Of a DNA stretch of 33,189 bases, positions 8,245 through 20,084 are shown piece after piece. The position numbers and the translations under genes were made by a program. This DNA comes from an uncultured Rhabdothermincola sp. (GTDB lineage Bacteria; Actinomycetota; Acidimicrobiia; Acidimicrobiales; Acidimicrobilacustridaceae): assembly GCA_964399375.1 (NCBI GenBank), contig CAYNQN010000006.1, positions 1-33,189 on the forward strand. Direction: 5' to 3'. The notes below the pieces were generated by a model, which did no database searches, was not told where the DNA came from, and saw nothing but the letters and a program-made list of their open reading frames with translations. The number at the start of each line of letters is the position of its first letter. Position 1 is the stretch's first letter.

Positions 8245-8319
8245 CGGGGAGTGGCGCAGCTTGGTTAGCGCGCCTGCTTTGGGAGCAGGAGGCCGGGAGT
8301 TCAAATCTCCCCTCCCCGA
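8245..8319 (+). tRNA. tRNA-Pro (anticodon TGG)
   Basis: Hand-folded cloverleaf: acceptor CGGGGAG/CTCCCCG, D arm GCGC-AGCTTGGTTA-GCGC, anticodon arm CCTGC-TTTGGGA-GCAGG (TGG), T arm GGGAG-TTCAAAT-CTCCC, discriminator A. No CCA is encoded. Confidence 0.93.
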
Positions 8320-9148: not shown

Positions 9149-9220
9149 AGCGGGTGACGGGAATCGAACCCGCATAACCAGCTTGGAAGGCTGGGGCTCT
9201 AGCCATTGAGCTACACCCGC
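9149..9220 (-). tRNA. tRNA-Gly (anticodon TCC)
   Basis: The reverse complement folds as: acceptor GCGGGTG/CACCCGC, D arm GCTC-AATGGCTA-GAGC, anticodon arm CCAGC-CTTCCAA-GCTGG (TCC), T arm GCGGG-TTCGATT-CCCGT, discriminator T. Confidence 0.92.
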
Positions 9221-9304: not shown

Positions 9305-9505
9305 CACAGGTAAGCGGTTGGAAGGAGAGCCGCAGACCGCTGCCCCTGGAGGGTCCGCAGAGACGGGCCGAGGTGTAGCATCGTGCCCAAGTCTCTCGGG
9401 TGGGGGAAGCCGGTCGAAGTCCGGCGCTGACCCGCAACCGTAGGCCTCCGTGGATCCTCCACGGGGGCGAGCCGGAGCACCTGCCCGAGAGCTGAAGCTC
9501 ACCAG
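9305..9505 (+). promoter_or_regulatory. Cobalamin (B12) riboswitch; the core is 9393-9491 and the outer boundaries are approximate
   Basis: The conserved core is GGGAAGCCGGTCGAAGTCCGGCGCTGACCCGCAACCGTAGG (9404-9444), including the CCGG-TCGAAGT-CCGG hairpin. A 9-bp hairpin follows at 9445-9467, then a B12-box-like GAGCCGGAGCACCTGCCC (9469-9486). CTCTCGGG (9393-9400) pairs with CCCGAGAG (9484-9491). It lies directly upstream of an ECF transporter operon. Confidence 0.8.
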
Positions 9506-9612
9506 TCCGTCGTGGTTCGCGGGAGGTGGCTCGAGTGCGAGGTGGCGATCTGCGAGATCGGCCCCCGGCCGGGCTCGCCGAGTGCGGACCCCAGATCCGG
9601 GAGGTCGCCGAG

Positions 9613-10623
9613 GTGCGCCGAGCTGGCTCGTGGCTCGTGGCAACCCTCGCTGCCCTCACGACGGCCGTCGTGCTCACGGGGCTGGCGACGATGTTCCCGA
9701 TGGCCGCGACGCCGGCGGGCGCCGCCGACACGGCCGCCACGACTCAAGGGGGCGTGGCGGTGAGCGGCCGGCCTTGCGGCCCGGGCGAGGGCGTGACGGT
9801 GATCGTCGACTTCACCACGATGCTCGACGAGATCCACGTCGCCTGCGCTCCCGGCAAGCAGCCGCACGGGTTCGCCGCCCTGCGAGCCGCTGGCTTCCGC
9901 ACCAGCTCAGAGGGCGGCGAGGGAAGGATCTGCACGATCGACGGCCGCCCCACCCAGGGCTACCCCTACTGCTGGACCACCGGCGGCTTCTGGTCGCACT
10001 GGAACGAGGGCGACTCGGGTGCCTGGGAGTTCAGCCAGGTGGGGGCGGGTCACGGGCCACTGGCTCCGGGCCACGTGAGCGGCTGGTCGTGGGCGCAGGA
10101 CTTCCGCCCGGCGGCGCCGCGGATCCCCGCAAGATGGGCCCCCCCGGCCGACGACGACGGGAACGACGGGAGCGACGACTCGCACGGCACGGACGGCGAC
10201 GGCGGAGGTGGGAGTGGCTCCGGCGAACCGGGTCCGATCGCAGCGATACCTCCAGGCGGCGCCGACGAACCAACCCCCGGGGGAGGTACGGGCGGCAGCG
10301 GGAGCACCACCTCCCCCGCCTCTCCGCAACCGGGGCAGGCCGGCGGCTCGGACGGCGACTCCCCCTCCGCTTCTCCCGACGCAGTCGACTCCACCCCGTT
10401 CGCGTCCGGGGACGGTGGCACCTCTTCGGGGTTGGGCGAGATGGAGCTGGCCAGCGGTGCCGACCCGGCAGGCGGAGCTACTGCCGGCGGAACGGTCGTC
10501 GGCGTCGCGGCCGGTGCGGGAGCGATCGCCGTCGTCGGCGCCGTAGCCGCCCTCTCGGCGCGTCGCAGGCACACCGCCCGAGGCTCGGGCCGAACCGGCG
10601 TACCTCCGTCGTCGATCCGATGA
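9613..10623 (+). CDS. Secreted, C-terminally membrane-anchored protein with a DUF4430 / transcobalamin beta-domain-like fold (putative extracellular cobalamin-binding protein)
   Basis: Frame of ORF 9526..10623. The preferred start is GTG 9613, 8 nt after GGGAGG (9599-9604), giving MRRAGSWLVATLAALTTAVVLTGLATMFPMAATPAGA-AD, which looks like a signal peptide. GTG 9526 is the alternative start. The domain segment GVTVIVDF...HGFAALRAAGF...ICTIDG...GGFWSHWNEGDSGAWEFSQVGAGHGPLAPGHVSGWSW fits my memory of the DUF4430 pattern. An ~140-aa D/G/S/P-rich linker follows, then a TM helix VVGVAAGAGAIAVVGAVAAL and RRRH. Confidence 0.6.
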   Translation: MRRAGSWLVATLAALTTAVVLTGLATMFPMAATPAGAADTAATTQGGVAVSGRPCGPGEGVTVIVDFTTMLDEIHVACAPGKQPHGFAALRAAGFRTSSEGGEGRICTIDGRPTQGYPYCWTTGGFWSHWNEGDSGAWEFSQVGAGHGPLAPGHVSGWSWAQDFRPAAPRIPARWAPPADDDGNDGSDDSHGTDGDGGGGSGSGEPGPIAAIPPGGADEPTPGGGTGGSGSTTSPASPQPGQAGGSDGDSPSASPDAVDSTPFASGDGGTSSGLGEMELASGADPAGGATAGGTVVGVAAGAGAIAVVGAVAALSARRRHTARGSGRTGVPPSSIR

Positions 10624-11831
10624 CGCACGTACGCAGGTTGGGGGATGACGGTCGGCGGAGCCCGGCGGGTCGGCTGCCCCGGGCGCTTCACCCAGGAGCC
10701 TGGTGGCTGTGGGCGCTGGGCATGGCCACGGCCGCCAGCCGCACCACCAACCCCGTGCTGCTCGGTCTCGTGGTCGCCGTGGTGGCCCTCGTGGTGGCTG
10801 CGCGCCGCACGGAGGCTCCCTGGGCCCGCGGCTTCAAGGCCTACCTCATCCTCGGGTTGGTGGTCATCGCCCTCCGTGTGGGCTTCCGGGCGCTATTGGG
10901 CAGCCAGACCGGCGAGCACGTGCTGTTCACCCTTCCCGAGATCCCCCTGCCCGACCTGGCCGCGGGGATCCGCATCGGGGGCCCGGTGGCGCTGGAGGGC
11001 TTGCTGGCCGCCCTCTACGACGGCATGCGCCTTGCCACCCTGCTCATCTGCCTCGGCGCAGCCAACGTGCTGGCCAACCCCAAGCGTCTCCTCAAGGCGC
11101 TGCCCAGCGCCCTGCACGAAGCCGGTGTGGCCGTCACCGTCGCGCTCACCATCGCTCCCCAGCTGGTCGAGAGCGCCCTGCGGGTGGGCAGGGCGAGAAA
11201 GCTCCGGGGCGAGCCCGGAAGGCGCCTGCGGTTGCTGCACGAGGTGGGGATCCCGGTGATGACCGATGCCCTCGAGAGGTCGCTGCTACTGGCGGCGGCC
11301 ATGGACTCACGCGGCTACGGCAGGGCCGGGACGCTGGCGCGCTCCACGAGGGCCGTCACGGGAGCACTGGTCGTGGGAGGGCTGGTGGGCGTGTGCGTGG
11401 GCACCTACGGGCTGCTCGACGCCAGCACCAGCCGCGCCCTCGGGCTGCCCATGTTGTTGGCGGGCGTGATCGTGGCCACGGTGGGGATGGTGATGGGCGG
11501 CCGCCGCGTGCGCACCAGCCGGTACCGCCCCGATCCGTGGAGGGCCCCCGAGTGGGCCGTGGCCGCGTCGGGCATCGCCGCCGCCGCCGTGATGATCGCC
11601 GTGGGCAACGTGGACCCGTCCAGCCTCAACCCCTCGCTGGAGCCCTTGCAGTGGCCGGCCGTCTCGGTCGCCCCTGTGGTGGGGATCCTCGTCGGGGCCC
11701 TCCCGGCATGGCTCGCACCGCCCGTGATGCTCACCGGCGCACCCCCGGCGACGCGCTCGGAGGAGTGGCTGGCCGGCGGGTCGGCGTTGCTCGAGACGAC
11801 TGATCGCCGGCAGGCGGAGCCGGCGCGGTGA
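10620..11831 (+). CDS. ecfT: ECF transporter transmembrane (T) component, CbiQ/EcfT family, with an extra C-terminal membrane extension (403 aa)
   Basis: ATG 10620 overlaps the upstream stop (ATGA). The protein is polytopic and hydrophobic. It has EcfT coupling-helix motifs (ALRVGRARKLRG and LLLAAAMDSRGYG). About 150 additional C-terminal residues carry further hydrophobic segments. Confidence 0.8.
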   Translation: MTHVRRLGDDGRRSPAGRLPRALHPGAWWLWALGMATAASRTTNPVLLGLVVAVVALVVAARRTEAPWARGFKAYLILGLVVIALRVGFRALLGSQTGEHVLFTLPEIPLPDLAAGIRIGGPVALEGLLAALYDGMRLATLLICLGAANVLANPKRLLKALPSALHEAGVAVTVALTIAPQLVESALRVGRARKLRGEPGRRLRLLHEVGIPVMTDALERSLLLAAAMDSRGYGRAGTLARSTRAVTGALVVGGLVGVCVGTYGLLDASTSRALGLPMLLAGVIVATVGMVMGGRRVRTSRYRPDPWRAPEWAVAASGIAAAAVMIAVGNVDPSSLNPSLEPLQWPAVSVAPVVGILVGALPAWLAPPVMLTGAPPATRSEEWLAGGSALLETTDRRQAEPAR

Positions 11832-13447
11832 TCACCTTCGAGTCGGTATCCATCACCTACCCCGGCGCAACGTCGCCCACCCTGCACGACGTGGACCTGG
11901 TGATCGAGGAGGGAGAGCTCTGCCTCGTCGTCGGCTCCACGGGCTCGGGCAAGTCCACGCTGCTGGGCGCCATCAACGGGCTGGTCCCCCACTTCACCGG
12001 CGGGCACCTGGGGGGGAGCGTGCGGGTGGACGGGCGCGAGACGCGCACGCACCCGCCGCGCGAGCTGGCCGACGTGGTGGGGGTGGTGGGGCAGGATCCG
12101 CTCTCGGGCTTCGTCACCGACACCGTCGAAGAGGAGCTGGCCTACTGCATGGAGCAGCTGGCCCTGCCACCCCAGGCCATGCGCAAGCGCGTGGAGGAGA
12201 TCCTCGACCTCCTCGGCATCGCCGAGCTGCGATCCAGGCCGCTGCGCACGCTCTCCGGGGGCCAGCAGCAGAGGGTTGCGATCGGTTCGGTGCTCACAGC
12301 GCACCCGCGCATCCTGGTGCTCGACGAGCCGACCTCCGCCCTCGACCCCACTGCCGCAGAGGAGGTGCTGGCCGCCATCACCCGCCTGGTCCACGACCTC
12401 GGGGTGACCGTGGTGATCGCCGAGCACCGACTGGAGCGGGTGGTCCAGTACGCCGACCGGGTCGTCGAGCTCCTGGACGGAGGCACCGTAGAGACGGGGC
12501 GACCCGCTGAGGTCTTCGCCAAAGCCACCCTCGCTCCCCCGGTGGTGCAGCTCGGGCGCCTGTGCGGTTGGGAACCCCTTCCCCTTTCGGTGCGCGAGGC
12601 ACGACGCCAGGCTCCGGAGCTGCGGGGGAGGCTTTCGACCACCTCGGTGCCGCGCCGCGAGGGTGTTGAGGGCGGCACTGTCCTACGTGCCCGCTCGGTG
12701 GTCGTGCGCTACGGAGAGCTCGTGGCGGTCCGGGAGGTCGACCTCGACCTGCACGCGGGCCAGGTGGTGGCCCTCATGGGCCGCAACGGATCTGGCAAGT
12801 CGTCGCTGCTCTGGGCGCTCCAGGGAAGCGGGCGCCGCCACGACGGCACGGTGGAGGTGAACGGCTCCGACCCCGGGGCACAGCCCGCCCGACAGGCCCG
12901 CCAGCTGGTGGGACTGGTGCCGCAGACGCCGGCCGACCTGCTCTTCCTCACGACGGTGGGCAACGAGCTCGCTCAGGCCGACAGCGACGCGGGGGCACCT
13001 CCGGGCACCGCAGCCGCCCTGCTGGAGCGCCTGGTGGGGCCGACGACCCTCGACATCCACCCCGCCGACCTGTCGGAGGGCCAGAAGCTCGCTCTGGTCC
13101 TGGCCATCCAGCTCACAGCCGCGCCCGACGTCGTGCTGCTCGACGAGCCCACGAGGGGCCTCGACTACGGGGCCAAGGCACAGCTCACCGGCATCCTCAC
13201 AACCCTGGCCGCCCAAGGCACCGCCGTGGTGGTGGCCACCCACGACGTGGAGTTCGTGGCAGGGGTGGCCCACCGCGTGGTCGTGATGGCGACCGGAGAG
13301 GTGGTGGCCGACGGGCCCGCCGCCGAGGTCGTCGGCACGTCTCCCGCCTTCGCACCCCAGGTAGCTCGAATACTGCACCCCGAGCCGTGGCTCACGGTGG
13401 AAGAGGTGGCGTCGGCATTGCGGGAGCTGGAGGGCGCGACGCCATGA
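11828..13447 (+). CDS. Fused tandem ABC ATPase (EcfA-EcfA') of an ECF transporter (539 aa)
   Basis: There are two complete nucleotide-binding domains: Walker A GSTGSGKST and GRNGSGKSS, signatures LSGGQQQRV and LSEGQKLAL, Walker B ILVLDEPTS and VVLLDEPTR. The GTG start overlaps the EcfT stop (GTGA). Confidence 0.9.
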   Translation: MITFESVSITYPGATSPTLHDVDLVIEEGELCLVVGSTGSGKSTLLGAINGLVPHFTGGHLGGSVRVDGRETRTHPPRELADVVGVVGQDPLSGFVTDTVEEELAYCMEQLALPPQAMRKRVEEILDLLGIAELRSRPLRTLSGGQQQRVAIGSVLTAHPRILVLDEPTSALDPTAAEEVLAAITRLVHDLGVTVVIAEHRLERVVQYADRVVELLDGGTVETGRPAEVFAKATLAPPVVQLGRLCGWEPLPLSVREARRQAPELRGRLSTTSVPRREGVEGGTVLRARSVVVRYGELVAVREVDLDLHAGQVVALMGRNGSGKSSLLWALQGSGRRHDGTVEVNGSDPGAQPARQARQLVGLVPQTPADLLFLTTVGNELAQADSDAGAPPGTAAALLERLVGPTTLDIHPADLSEGQKLALVLAIQLTAAPDVVLLDEPTRGLDYGAKAQLTGILTTLAAQGTAVVVATHDVEFVAGVAHRVVVMATGEVVADGPAAEVVGTSPAFAPQVARILHPEPWLTVEEVASALRELEGATP

Positions 13448-19718: not shown

Positions 19719-19791
19719 CGCCTCCGGTTGGAATCGAACCAACGACCTTGGGATTAGAAGTCCCCTGCTCTATCCGCTGAGCTACGGAGGC
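19719..19791 (-). tRNA. tRNA-Arg (anticodon TCT)
   Basis: The reverse complement folds as: acceptor GCCTCCG/CGGAGGC, D arm GCTC-AGCGGATA-GAGC, anticodon arm GGGGA-CTTCTAA-TCCCA (TCT; 27:43 is a G:A mismatch), T arm GTTGG-TTCGATT-CCAAC, discriminator G. Confidence 0.9.
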
Positions 19792-19860: not shown

Positions 19861-19939
19861 GGTGGCCGTAGCTCAGCTCGGTTAGAGCGCCAGGTTGTGG
19901 CCCTGGAGGTCGGGGGTTCAAGTCCCCTCGGCCACCCCA
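19861..19939 (+). tRNA. tRNA-His (anticodon GTG) with encoded G-1 and encoded 3' CCA
   Basis: G-1 (19861) lies opposite discriminator C (19936). Acceptor GTGGCCG/CGGCCAC, anticodon arm CCAGG-TTGTGGC-CCTGG (GTG), T arm GGGGG-TTCAAGT-CCCCT, CCA at 19937-19939. Confidence 0.93.
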
Positions 19940-20011: not shown

Positions 20012-20084
20012 GCACCTCTAGCTCAATTGGCAGAGCAACGGACTCTTAATCCGCAGGTTCTGGGTTCGAGTCCCAGGGGGTGTA
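20012..20084 (+). tRNA. tRNA-Lys (anticodon CTT)
   Basis: Acceptor GCACCTC/GGGGTGT (G1:T72 and T6:G67 wobbles), D arm GCTC-AATTGGCA-GAGC, anticodon loop CTCTTAA (CTT), T arm CTGGG-TTCGAGT-CCCAG, discriminator A. Confidence 0.88.

Follow-up and report, generated by a model that had tools for sequence, protein, structure and literature searches.

What does an exported protein do as the first gene of an operon for an energy-coupling factor (ECF) transporter? ECF transporters are the textbook ATP-binding cassette (ABC) importers without an extracytoplasmic binding protein, and vitamin B12 uptake in Gram-positive bacteria and in actinobacteria is poorly understood. The question is raised by a 33-kb stretch of DNA from an uncultured Rhabdothermincola sp. 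of the Acidimicrobiia (contig CAYNQN010000006.1), called the window here and meant as the whole stretch, in which a cobalamin riboswitch is followed by an ECF operon. We call the first gene of this operon X. The reading we favour, at a probability of about 0.6, gives X the role of a surface-tethered subunit that captures corrinoids for a dedicated (group I) ECF B12 importer; its ectodomain resembles the beta domain of transcobalamin (TC).

The riboswitch aptamer scored above its gathering score and lies directly upstream of the operon on the same strand, which assigns the operon to a cobalamin riboswitch regulon. Downstream of it four co-directional genes follow in the order X, EcfT, EcfA-A′ and EcfS, and all three junctions are 4-nt overlaps of stop and start codons (X/EcfT, ATGA at 10620–10623; EcfT/EcfA, GTGA at 11828–11831; EcfA/EcfS, ATGA at 13444–13447), which implies one operon with probable translational coupling. 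A preliminary description of this DNA had concluded from the first overlap that X and EcfT are co-produced stoichiometrically, which is more than a 4-nt overlap implies. As in group I transporters, the genes for EcfT, for both EcfA domains and for an S component lie together, each with profile matches above the cut-offs.

The case for a transcobalamin-like ectodomain starts from its structure model. The AlphaFold2 (AF2) model, made with a 53-sequence alignment (A2), had a predicted local distance difference test score (pLDDT) of 94.4 and a predicted template-modelling score (pTM) of 0.89. It contains two long strands, a helix, short strands and three further strands, with two extra strands at the N-terminus, and this predicted topology is compatible with a beta-grasp fold. 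A Foldseek search of 350,542 PDB chains put the beta domain of transcobalamin or full-length TC in nine of the ten top places, with ubiquitin-like domains lower in the list. The TC matches (such as 5np4, 5no0, 7qbg and 2bb6) reached template-modelling (TM) scores of 0.58–0.62 on the 105-aa target, at a root-mean-square deviation (rmsd) of 3.5–4.8 Å and a probability of about 0.8; for 5no0 the target TM score (TMt) was 0.62, with an rmsd of 3.5 Å over 109 columns and a probability of 0.82. In the transcobalamin-like clade of SLBB beta-grasp domains, a beta-hairpin inserted after the helix contacts the 5,6-dimethylbenzimidazole (DMB) base (PMC1796856), and the short strands of the X model at 61–62, 72–73 and 76, between the helix at 50–56 and the strand at 89–96, are compatible with such an insert.

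The relatives of X add a second domain to this comparison. An alpha/alpha toroid is fused to the domain in 46 of the 150 best relatives, 13 of them in the order found in TC (toroid N-terminal) and 33 in the reverse order (toroid C-terminal), and matches to SQHop_cyclase/Prenyltrans (Pfam) and SCO2321_fam (NCBIfam) agree with these fusions. One relative in TC order, P0058, consists of a lipoprotein-type signal, a toroid and a beta domain (model pLDDT 92.6, pTM 0.91), and its 11 best PDB matches are transcobalamin and intrinsic factor (IF), with E values of 2e-9 to 6e-7 over 407–460 columns. Toroid-only terpene cyclases rank behind these and align over about 280–290 columns. Since P0058 matches TC and IF over both domains, the family is transcobalamin-like in both, which makes the assignment of the X ectodomain as a TC-type beta domain credible despite the weak statistics of the beta domain alone. 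Features of the transcobalamin-like SLBB clade found here are a TC-like beta-grasp core (though at E 0.3–1) and, in its context, a signal peptide and anchor, toroid fusions on either side and operons with CbiQ/CbiO-like genes.

There is little doubt that X is a real gene with a family behind it. The open reading frame (ORF) at 9526–10623 is open and its translation holds all of the motifs quoted in the preliminary description. Its G+C content at third codon positions (GC3) is 0.84–0.90, an ortholog with 78% identity is present in a Rhabdothermincola metagenome-assembled genome (MAG; locus L002), and phmmer, run exhaustively over 1.84 billion representatives, returned homologs in 809 clusters at E≤1e-3, 218 of them at E≤1e-10, which together show that X is no chance ORF. 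A word-indexed homolog search with the X ectodomain returned no match. Among the named matches the family is confined to Actinomycetota (Micromonospora, Amycolatopsis, Ruania, Actinosynnema, Dactylosporangium and Catellatospora, along with Acidimicrobiia and Microthrixaceae MAGs), and all are annotated as "hypothetical protein". Judged by its nearest relatives, the window falls among Iamiaceae-like Acidimicrobiia. The NCBIfam model NF040672, "SCO2322 family protein", was matched by 47 of 91 phmmer relatives at E≤0.01, and most close relatives carry precomputed PF28005 "SCO2322" labels, often marked "weak". By sequence, X is probably a divergent member of this uncharacterised actinobacterial SCO2322 family (NF040672/PF28005). 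A literature search on SCO2321–2324 found nothing relevant.

The genomic context of these relatives supports a role linked to both cobalamin and ECF transport. We compared 17 loci including the window (a single-sequence scan gave 10 loci), and the order of a beta domain with a transmembrane helix, EcfT, EcfAA′ and EcfS was seen in 8 of them, spread over four orders, with Micromonospora, Amycolatopsis, Ruania and Acidimicrobiia MAGs among the carriers. Three arrangements occur. The window, its ortholog L002, Ruania (L014) and Amycolatopsis (L015) have the anchored beta gene and the ECF genes with no toroid gene; Micromonospora (L001), Microthrixaceae (L004) and two MAGs (L012 and L013) place a toroid gene before the anchored beta gene and the ECF genes, often with an extra stand-alone beta gene; and in L003 and L005–L011, whose flanks are free of ECF genes, beta and toroid are adjacent or fused. 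The copies next to ECF genes are all built alike, from a signal peptide and the domain to a low-complexity linker of 30–150 aa, a C-terminal transmembrane helix and a poly-Arg stretch, while the stand-alone beta paralogs are without a C-terminal anchor. A cobalamin-class riboswitch sits directly upstream in 11 of the 17 loci at the gathering score (including an AdoCbl-II riboswitch in Ruania) and in 5 more just below it at the expected position, leaving Amycolatopsis as the only locus without one. The association of the domain with ECF genes and cobalamin riboswitches is conserved across Actinomycetota, which supports the reading of the preliminary description.

Several of these loci are worth describing further. 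In L003 and L005–L011 a secreted stand-alone beta gene is followed immediately by a lipoprotein-type toroid gene or is fused to it, a "split transcobalamin" pair behind its own cobalamin riboswitch, with aspS upstream, rarA and alaS downstream, and no ECF genes within 8 kb. In L001, L004, L012 and L013 two riboswitch-controlled units lie side by side, one a stand-alone beta gene and the other running from a toroid gene through the anchored beta gene to EcfT, EcfAA′ and EcfS, so one organism encodes free and anchored paralogs of the domain. In Ruania suaedae (L014) a PduO-type ATP:cob(I)alamin adenosyltransferase (PF01923; 7212–7766) is divergent from the AdoCbl-II riboswitch and the X-ECF operon, a neighbour that fits corrinoid salvage.

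The architecture of X itself is that of an exported and anchored protein. Positions from hydropathy and composition are given here in the 365-aa numbering that starts at 9526. The N-terminal hydrophobic core covers aa 35–57 and is followed by PAGA and then AD; reading the A-x-A site by eye, the signal peptide is probably cleaved after AGA. A Tat signal was rejected by motif inspection, as there was no fit to the TATFIND pattern. An N-terminal hydrophobic segment is present in 140 of 150 relatives. The family hidden Markov model (HMM) matches the ectodomain at 1e-52, and four cysteines (C19, C42, C71 and C84) are nearly invariant in alignment A2, suggesting two disulfides, which would be consistent with an extracytoplasmic location. 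The linker that follows (aa 200–325) is 26% G, 13% S, 13% P, 13% A and 12% D, and its length and composition, not its sequence, are kept in the ortholog. It is acidic and rich in Gly, Ser and Pro as first described, at about 115 rather than about 140 residues, and fully extended such a stalk could span tens of nanometres, enough for an actinobacterial wall.

The C-terminal hydrophobic segment is 24 residues long (aa 322–345), is followed by RRRH, and is kept in the ortholog. A C-terminal transmembrane segment with basic residues was found in 51 of 67 relatives of 231–450 aa, some of which have LAxTG sorting motifs. In the alignment the MELASGADP of X falls on the ALARTGSDP of relatives, where an LAxTG signal precedes the transmembrane segment and RR(R), and the ortholog has MELTSAPGA. 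There is no LAxTG or LPxTG motif before the C-terminal hydrophobic segment of X, the Thr-Gly being lost in both the window and the ortholog; we therefore assume a plain transmembrane anchor, and the alignment suggests a decayed sortase signal turned into a permanent membrane anchor. In all, the anatomy given in the preliminary description (cobalamin riboswitch, ORF, quoted motifs, signal peptide, linker and transmembrane anchor) was recovered by cmscan, ORF, hydropathy and composition analysis, and its picture of X as a surface-tethered, riboswitch-controlled protein whose gene overlaps the EcfT start holds. The coordinates are collected in the table.

Table. Features of the riboswitch-ECF operon and of the protein encoded by X, in positions of the window.
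Feature	Position	Strand	Details and basis
Cobalamin riboswitch aptamer (RF00174)	9381–9502	+	cmscan 40.1 bits against a gathering score of 31.5, E 6.1e-7
Leader/expression platform, probably non-coding, including the Shine-Dalgarno sequence GGGAGG at 9599–9604	9503–9612	+	Nucleotide versus codon comparison with L002
Gene X	9613–10623	+	336 aa; probable SCO2322-family, transcobalamin-beta-like, surface-tethered protein; equals P0001 (100% identity, 336 aa)
X: Sec-type signal peptide	9613–9723	+	n-region RR, h-region WLVATLAALTTAVVLTGLATMF, c-region PMAATPAGA followed by A; hydropathy
X: ectodomain, predicted beta-grasp (SLBB, transcobalamin-beta-like), ~135 aa, four conserved Cys	9724–10140 (HMM core 9736–10128)	+	AF2, Foldseek, alignment A2
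X: acidic low-complexity Gly/Ser/Pro/Ala stalk, ~115 aa	10141–10488	+	Composition
X: C-terminal transmembrane anchor (GTVVGVAAGAGAIAVVGAVAALSA), RRRH, short cytoplasmic tail	10489–10623	+	Hydropathy 2.0–2.2; stop at 10621–10623 overlaps the EcfT ATG
EcfT (CbiQ family), 403 aa	10620–11831	+	PF02361 35.9 bits (cut-off 25), aa 20–234
Fused EcfA-EcfA′ ATPase, two ABC_tran domains	11828–13447	+	PF00005 twice at 1e-52; TIGR04520 and TIGR04521 ~296 bits
ECF S component, 312 aa	13444–14382	+	PF12822 31.9 bits (cut-off 30.7)

Where X begins had to be revised. The preliminary description placed the start at 9526, and the most likely start is the GTG at 9613, giving a protein of 336 aa. The Shine-Dalgarno (SD) sequence GGGAGG is located 8 nt upstream of this GTG, and the entry for X in a public protein library (P0001) is the 336-aa form. 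The segment from 9503 to 9612 shares about 90% nucleotide identity with the ortholog L002, and reading it as codons from 9535 gives about 1 synonymous against 10 non-synonymous differences; we therefore take it as a conserved RNA leader and not as coding sequence. Both 9526 and 9535 were rejected as starts, since the stretch at 9535–9612 behaves as a riboswitch leader when compared with the codons of the ortholog. The riboswitch is kept in L002 at 28.9 bits. Two copies of CGGGAGGT lie within the leader. A predicted leader hairpin has CCCGG (~9562) pairing with part of the SD, and the leader is probably an expression platform that sequesters it, though this platform model is speculative: folding gave z = −0.41, no better than shuffles, and no covariation was seen among two sequences only.

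The rest of the window has a few features that touch the operon. Five tRNA genes are present, at 8245–8319 (+), 9149–9220 (−), 19719–19791 (−), 19862–19936 (+) and 20012–20084 (+), and since the second lies about 160 nt upstream of the riboswitch, the operon promoter must sit in a short intergenic space. Long spurious ORFs in other frames overlap the operon (9450–11831), such as a 793-aa ORF running through X into EcfT; these are typical of high-GC DNA, so a list of ORFs is by itself no evidence of genes here.

The transporter genes bear on the substrate as well. EcfT is unusually long, having beyond its CbiQ domain (aa 20–234) an extra hydrophobic C-terminal region with a weak DUF1129 match at aa 245–350, a region that might contact the transmembrane anchor of X. 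It matches the PDB EcfT 5d3m_D at E 0.0017, and the EcfT proteins of related operons are 338–384 aa in length. The S component is of the vitamin type (PF12822), not CbiM/NikM, and there is no CbiN, which argues against cobalt as the substrate. It also has an N-terminal extension of about 55 aa and a Pro/Gly-rich insertion (HAPGAPARSGGPPGPARAGG).

Several results weigh against a corrinoid-binding, transcobalamin-like X. The preliminary description had likened the domain to DUF4430 and set a match to PF14478 beforehand as a test of its claim. No match of X to PF14478 was found at E≤1 or E≤10. Among 91 full-length relatives there was none at E≤0.01 either, and of 53 domains just 2 matched at all, the best at E 0.06, so that by its own first test the claim fails at the level of sequence. 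The TC-beta-like fold is the part of that comparison that stands, with AF2, Foldseek and the toroid-fused relatives behind it, while SCO2322 probably takes the place of DUF4430 as the family. Even there, X reaches 14.9 bits (E 0.026) on NF040672, where the cut-off is 85. Aligning the family profile to human TC-beta with hhalign gave a probability of 0.3, although the local alignment did put GF...G..C/TS..G...FW in register. PDB sequence searches with the X ectodomain and the family profile returned antibody noise or nothing, and a search with human TC-beta for building a TC/DUF4430 profile returned only 20 near-identical mammalian fragments. By sequence there is, then, no statistically significant link of X to DUF4430 or TC. 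The structural check proposed earlier succeeded in ranking, with TC beta domains as nine of the ten best matches, and fell short in significance, as no Foldseek match of the beta-only ectodomain reached E≤1e-3 and the values of 0.3–1 are not significant alone. On the transporter side, the S component matched no PDB sequence at E≤10 and has no detectable similarity to CbrT.

There are biochemical reasons for caution too. In TC most of the binding energy requires the alpha domain, and the preliminary description was right that the toroid is absent: no toroid-domain gene is found in the 33-kb window, so "beta-only" holds for this locus. The beta-grasp fold serves many ligands, among SLBB relatives polysaccharide or DNA-associated partners (PMC1796856). 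Experiments on an ECF transporter with TC-like partners exist for L. sakei only, and they link it to heme and not to B12 (bioRxiv 10.1101/864751). On the other side, the isolated human TC beta domain alone binds cyanocobalamin (CNCbl) and cobinamide (Cbi), while alpha and beta assemble only with cobalamin (Cbl) (PMC5599065), which makes a beta-only binder biochemically plausible. Such a binder might have a faster off-rate, a useful property for handing the ligand on.

Taking X as a tethered corrinoid binder, we infer a sequence of events in which cleavage of the signal peptide, formation of the disulfides, corrinoid binding by X, transfer of the ligand to EcfS and the part played by the linker all enter as predicted steps. 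When cobalamin is scarce, the riboswitch would permit expression of X, EcfT, EcfAA′ and EcfS from one mRNA, with the overlaps probably coupling their translation. X would be exported by Sec, its signal peptide probably cleaved after AGA, and the protein would be held by the C-terminal transmembrane helix that resembles a decayed LAxTG sorting signal. The disordered acidic stalk of about 115 residues would position the disulfide-stabilised TC-beta-type (SLBB) beta-grasp domain in or beyond the wall, where it may bind cobalamin or cobinamide, by analogy with the isolated human TC beta domain. The bound corrinoid would then be concentrated locally at the S component or handed over to it, and the S component would be toppled by EcfT and EcfAA′ with ATP hydrolysis.

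The same parts can be put together differently. A beta-only, membrane-tethered SCO2322 protein could be an obligatory fifth ECF subunit that docks on the S component; the latter would stand in for the missing alpha toroid, and the corrinoid would be sandwiched between the two. We regard this as tentative and on the unlikely side. If true, it would give ECF transporters their first genuine substrate-binding subunit outside the cytoplasm, and would imply a bacterial "split transcobalamin", a relay of B12 across a thick wall by paralogs of three kinds (free beta, free alpha and anchored beta). X may also bind no ligand and be a structural or regulatory ECF accessory that stabilises or gates the S component or EcfT, anchors the transporter to the wall, or couples in the manner of CbiN; in one variant an uncleaved signal peptide would make it a two-transmembrane protein with a large outside loop. 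That ECF-adjacent copies are always membrane-anchored, that X tightly adjoins an EcfT with an unusual extra C-terminal membrane region, that the window has no alpha domain, that cleavage of the signal peptide is a prediction, and that wall polysaccharide is the ligand of SLBB domains in ComEA and Wza-type proteins (PMC1796856) all speak for such a role. We nevertheless consider it unlikely, given the A-x-A site after the h-region of X, the TC-like two-domain relatives, and the secreted or lipoprotein paralogs found singly or together with toroid proteins, under cobalamin riboswitches of their own and with no ECF genes nearby, which fits a soluble-ligand function better than one in complex assembly.

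The architecture could also be as we describe it and the ligand another one, such as heme or another metallo-tetrapyrrole, a corrinoid precursor only, or cobalt for B12 synthesis, with the ECF transporter importing that ligand. Cobalamin riboswitches are known to control cobalt importers too, and the S component is not recognisable as CbrT. For some SLBB proteins Burroughs et al. allowed for the scavenging of "a distinct metabolite" (PMC1796856), and the L. sakei ECF operon with TC-alpha- and TC-beta-like proteins is the one experimentally tied to heme uptake. A different ligand still seems quite improbable to us when the S component is of the PF12822 type rather than CbiM/NikM and CbiN is missing, riboswitch control is nearly universal across the family loci, a cobalamin adenosyltransferase adjoins the Ruania operon, and the protein that the two-domain relatives resemble most closely, TC, is a corrinoid binder. 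Finally, the likeness to TC-beta may be convergent or trivial, that of a generic small beta-grasp domain, leaving X an uncharacterised SCO2322 surface protein and its link to B12 a regulatory coincidence. The missing sequence or profile match to DUF4430 or TC, a Foldseek E of about 0.3 and the ubiquitin-like domains further down that list are what would be expected then. We find this very unlikely, since about a third of the relatives carry a toroid in both orders, as described for the TC-like SLBB clade, the fused relative matches TC and IF over both domains at E 2e-9, the association with riboswitch and ECF is conserved in about 16 of 17 loci, and riboswitch-controlled stand-alone beta and toroid paralogs exist.

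If X does capture corrinoids, a function would be given to the widespread "hypothetical" SCO2322 family and to its toroid partner SCO2321, and the bacterial TC-like system would reach beyond Firmicutes into Actinomycetota, with a bearing on the origin of the animal B12 carriers. It would also provide a compact corrinoid-binding module of about 135 aa, a testable case of a tethered binder passing its substrate to an S component, and better predictions of B12 auxotrophy for soil, freshwater and wastewater Actinomycetota. The idea of tethered capture is not conceptually new, having been predicted for Firmicutes in 2007 and described in the L. sakei operon. Unless a new mechanism of hand-off can be demonstrated, the advance is incremental. 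What appear to be undescribed in the literature searched are the link of SCO2322/SCO2321 to transcobalamin, the transmembrane tether of the ECF-adjacent paralog, and the beta-only operons.

Among known systems, the mammalian carriers transcobalamin, intrinsic factor and haptocorrin (2BB5, 5NP4 and 3KQ4) share the fold of the X ectodomain (TM score ~0.6 on the 105-aa beta domain) and the combination of toroid and beta domain in its fused relatives. X differs from them in a sequence identity of about 12–15%, the lack of an alpha domain, extra N-terminal strands, two probable disulfides and a membrane tether, and whereas the carriers deliver to an endocytic receptor, X would deliver to a transporter. 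BtuF, the cluster A substrate-binding protein of BtuCD, is a functional analogue as an extracytoplasmic corrinoid binder that feeds a transporter, and the surface B12-capture lipoprotein BtuG of Bacteroides is another; for both the fold is unrelated and the transporter class different.

Closer to the window in transporter class are the ECF-type importers of cobalamin or cobinamide. ECF-CbrT of Lactobacillus delbrueckii (6FNP) transports B12 in vitro without an extracytoplasmic partner and uses a shared group II module (Santos et al. 2018; PMC5997447), and Kang et al. proposed as B12 importers the ECF modules behind Cobalamin/AdoCbl riboswitches in acI Actinobacteria (PMC5301498). The actinobacterial versions are preceded by riboswitches as the operon in the window is. 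The S component of the window has no detectable CbrT similarity, and for the acI systems no accessory surface protein is discussed.

The preliminary description set out from ECF transporters normally working without an extracytoplasmic binding protein; the premise that such a partner is unprecedented is wrong on two counts. Burroughs, Balaji, Iyer and Aravind defined in 2007 the transcobalamin-like clade of SLBB beta-grasp domains (Pfam DUF4430), with signal peptides, Gram-positive anchors, toroid fusions on either side, paralogous extracellular copies and CbiO/CbiQ-like operons, and proposed that these proteins scavenge B12 or its precursors; they listed the clade for low-GC Gram-positives, planctomycetes and some archaea, and did not list Actinobacteria (PMC1796856). 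The X family is like this clade in its secreted or anchored beta-grasp domain, its toroid fusions on either side, its paralogous extracellular copies and its CbiQ/CbiO-like genes. It is unlike it in being unmatched by PF14478, in forming a separate actinobacterial SCO2322 family with four conserved Cys, and in that the ECF-adjacent X is beta-only and has a transmembrane-helix anchor instead of LPXTG. The second precedent is lsa1836–1840 of L. sakei, which encodes an ECF-S, EcfAA′, EcfT and the secreted TC-beta-like Lsa1839 and TC-alpha-like Lsa1840 (Verplaetse et al., bioRxiv 10.1101/864751). Like the operon in the window, it is a dedicated ECF operon with exported TC-like proteins, for which a role in catching the substrate outside the cell and delivering it to the S component was proposed. 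It differs in having both alpha- and beta-like proteins, recognisable by HHpred, in heme as the substrate proposed and tested, and in that no cobalamin riboswitch was reported, whereas the system in the window is beta-only, membrane-tethered and riboswitch-controlled.

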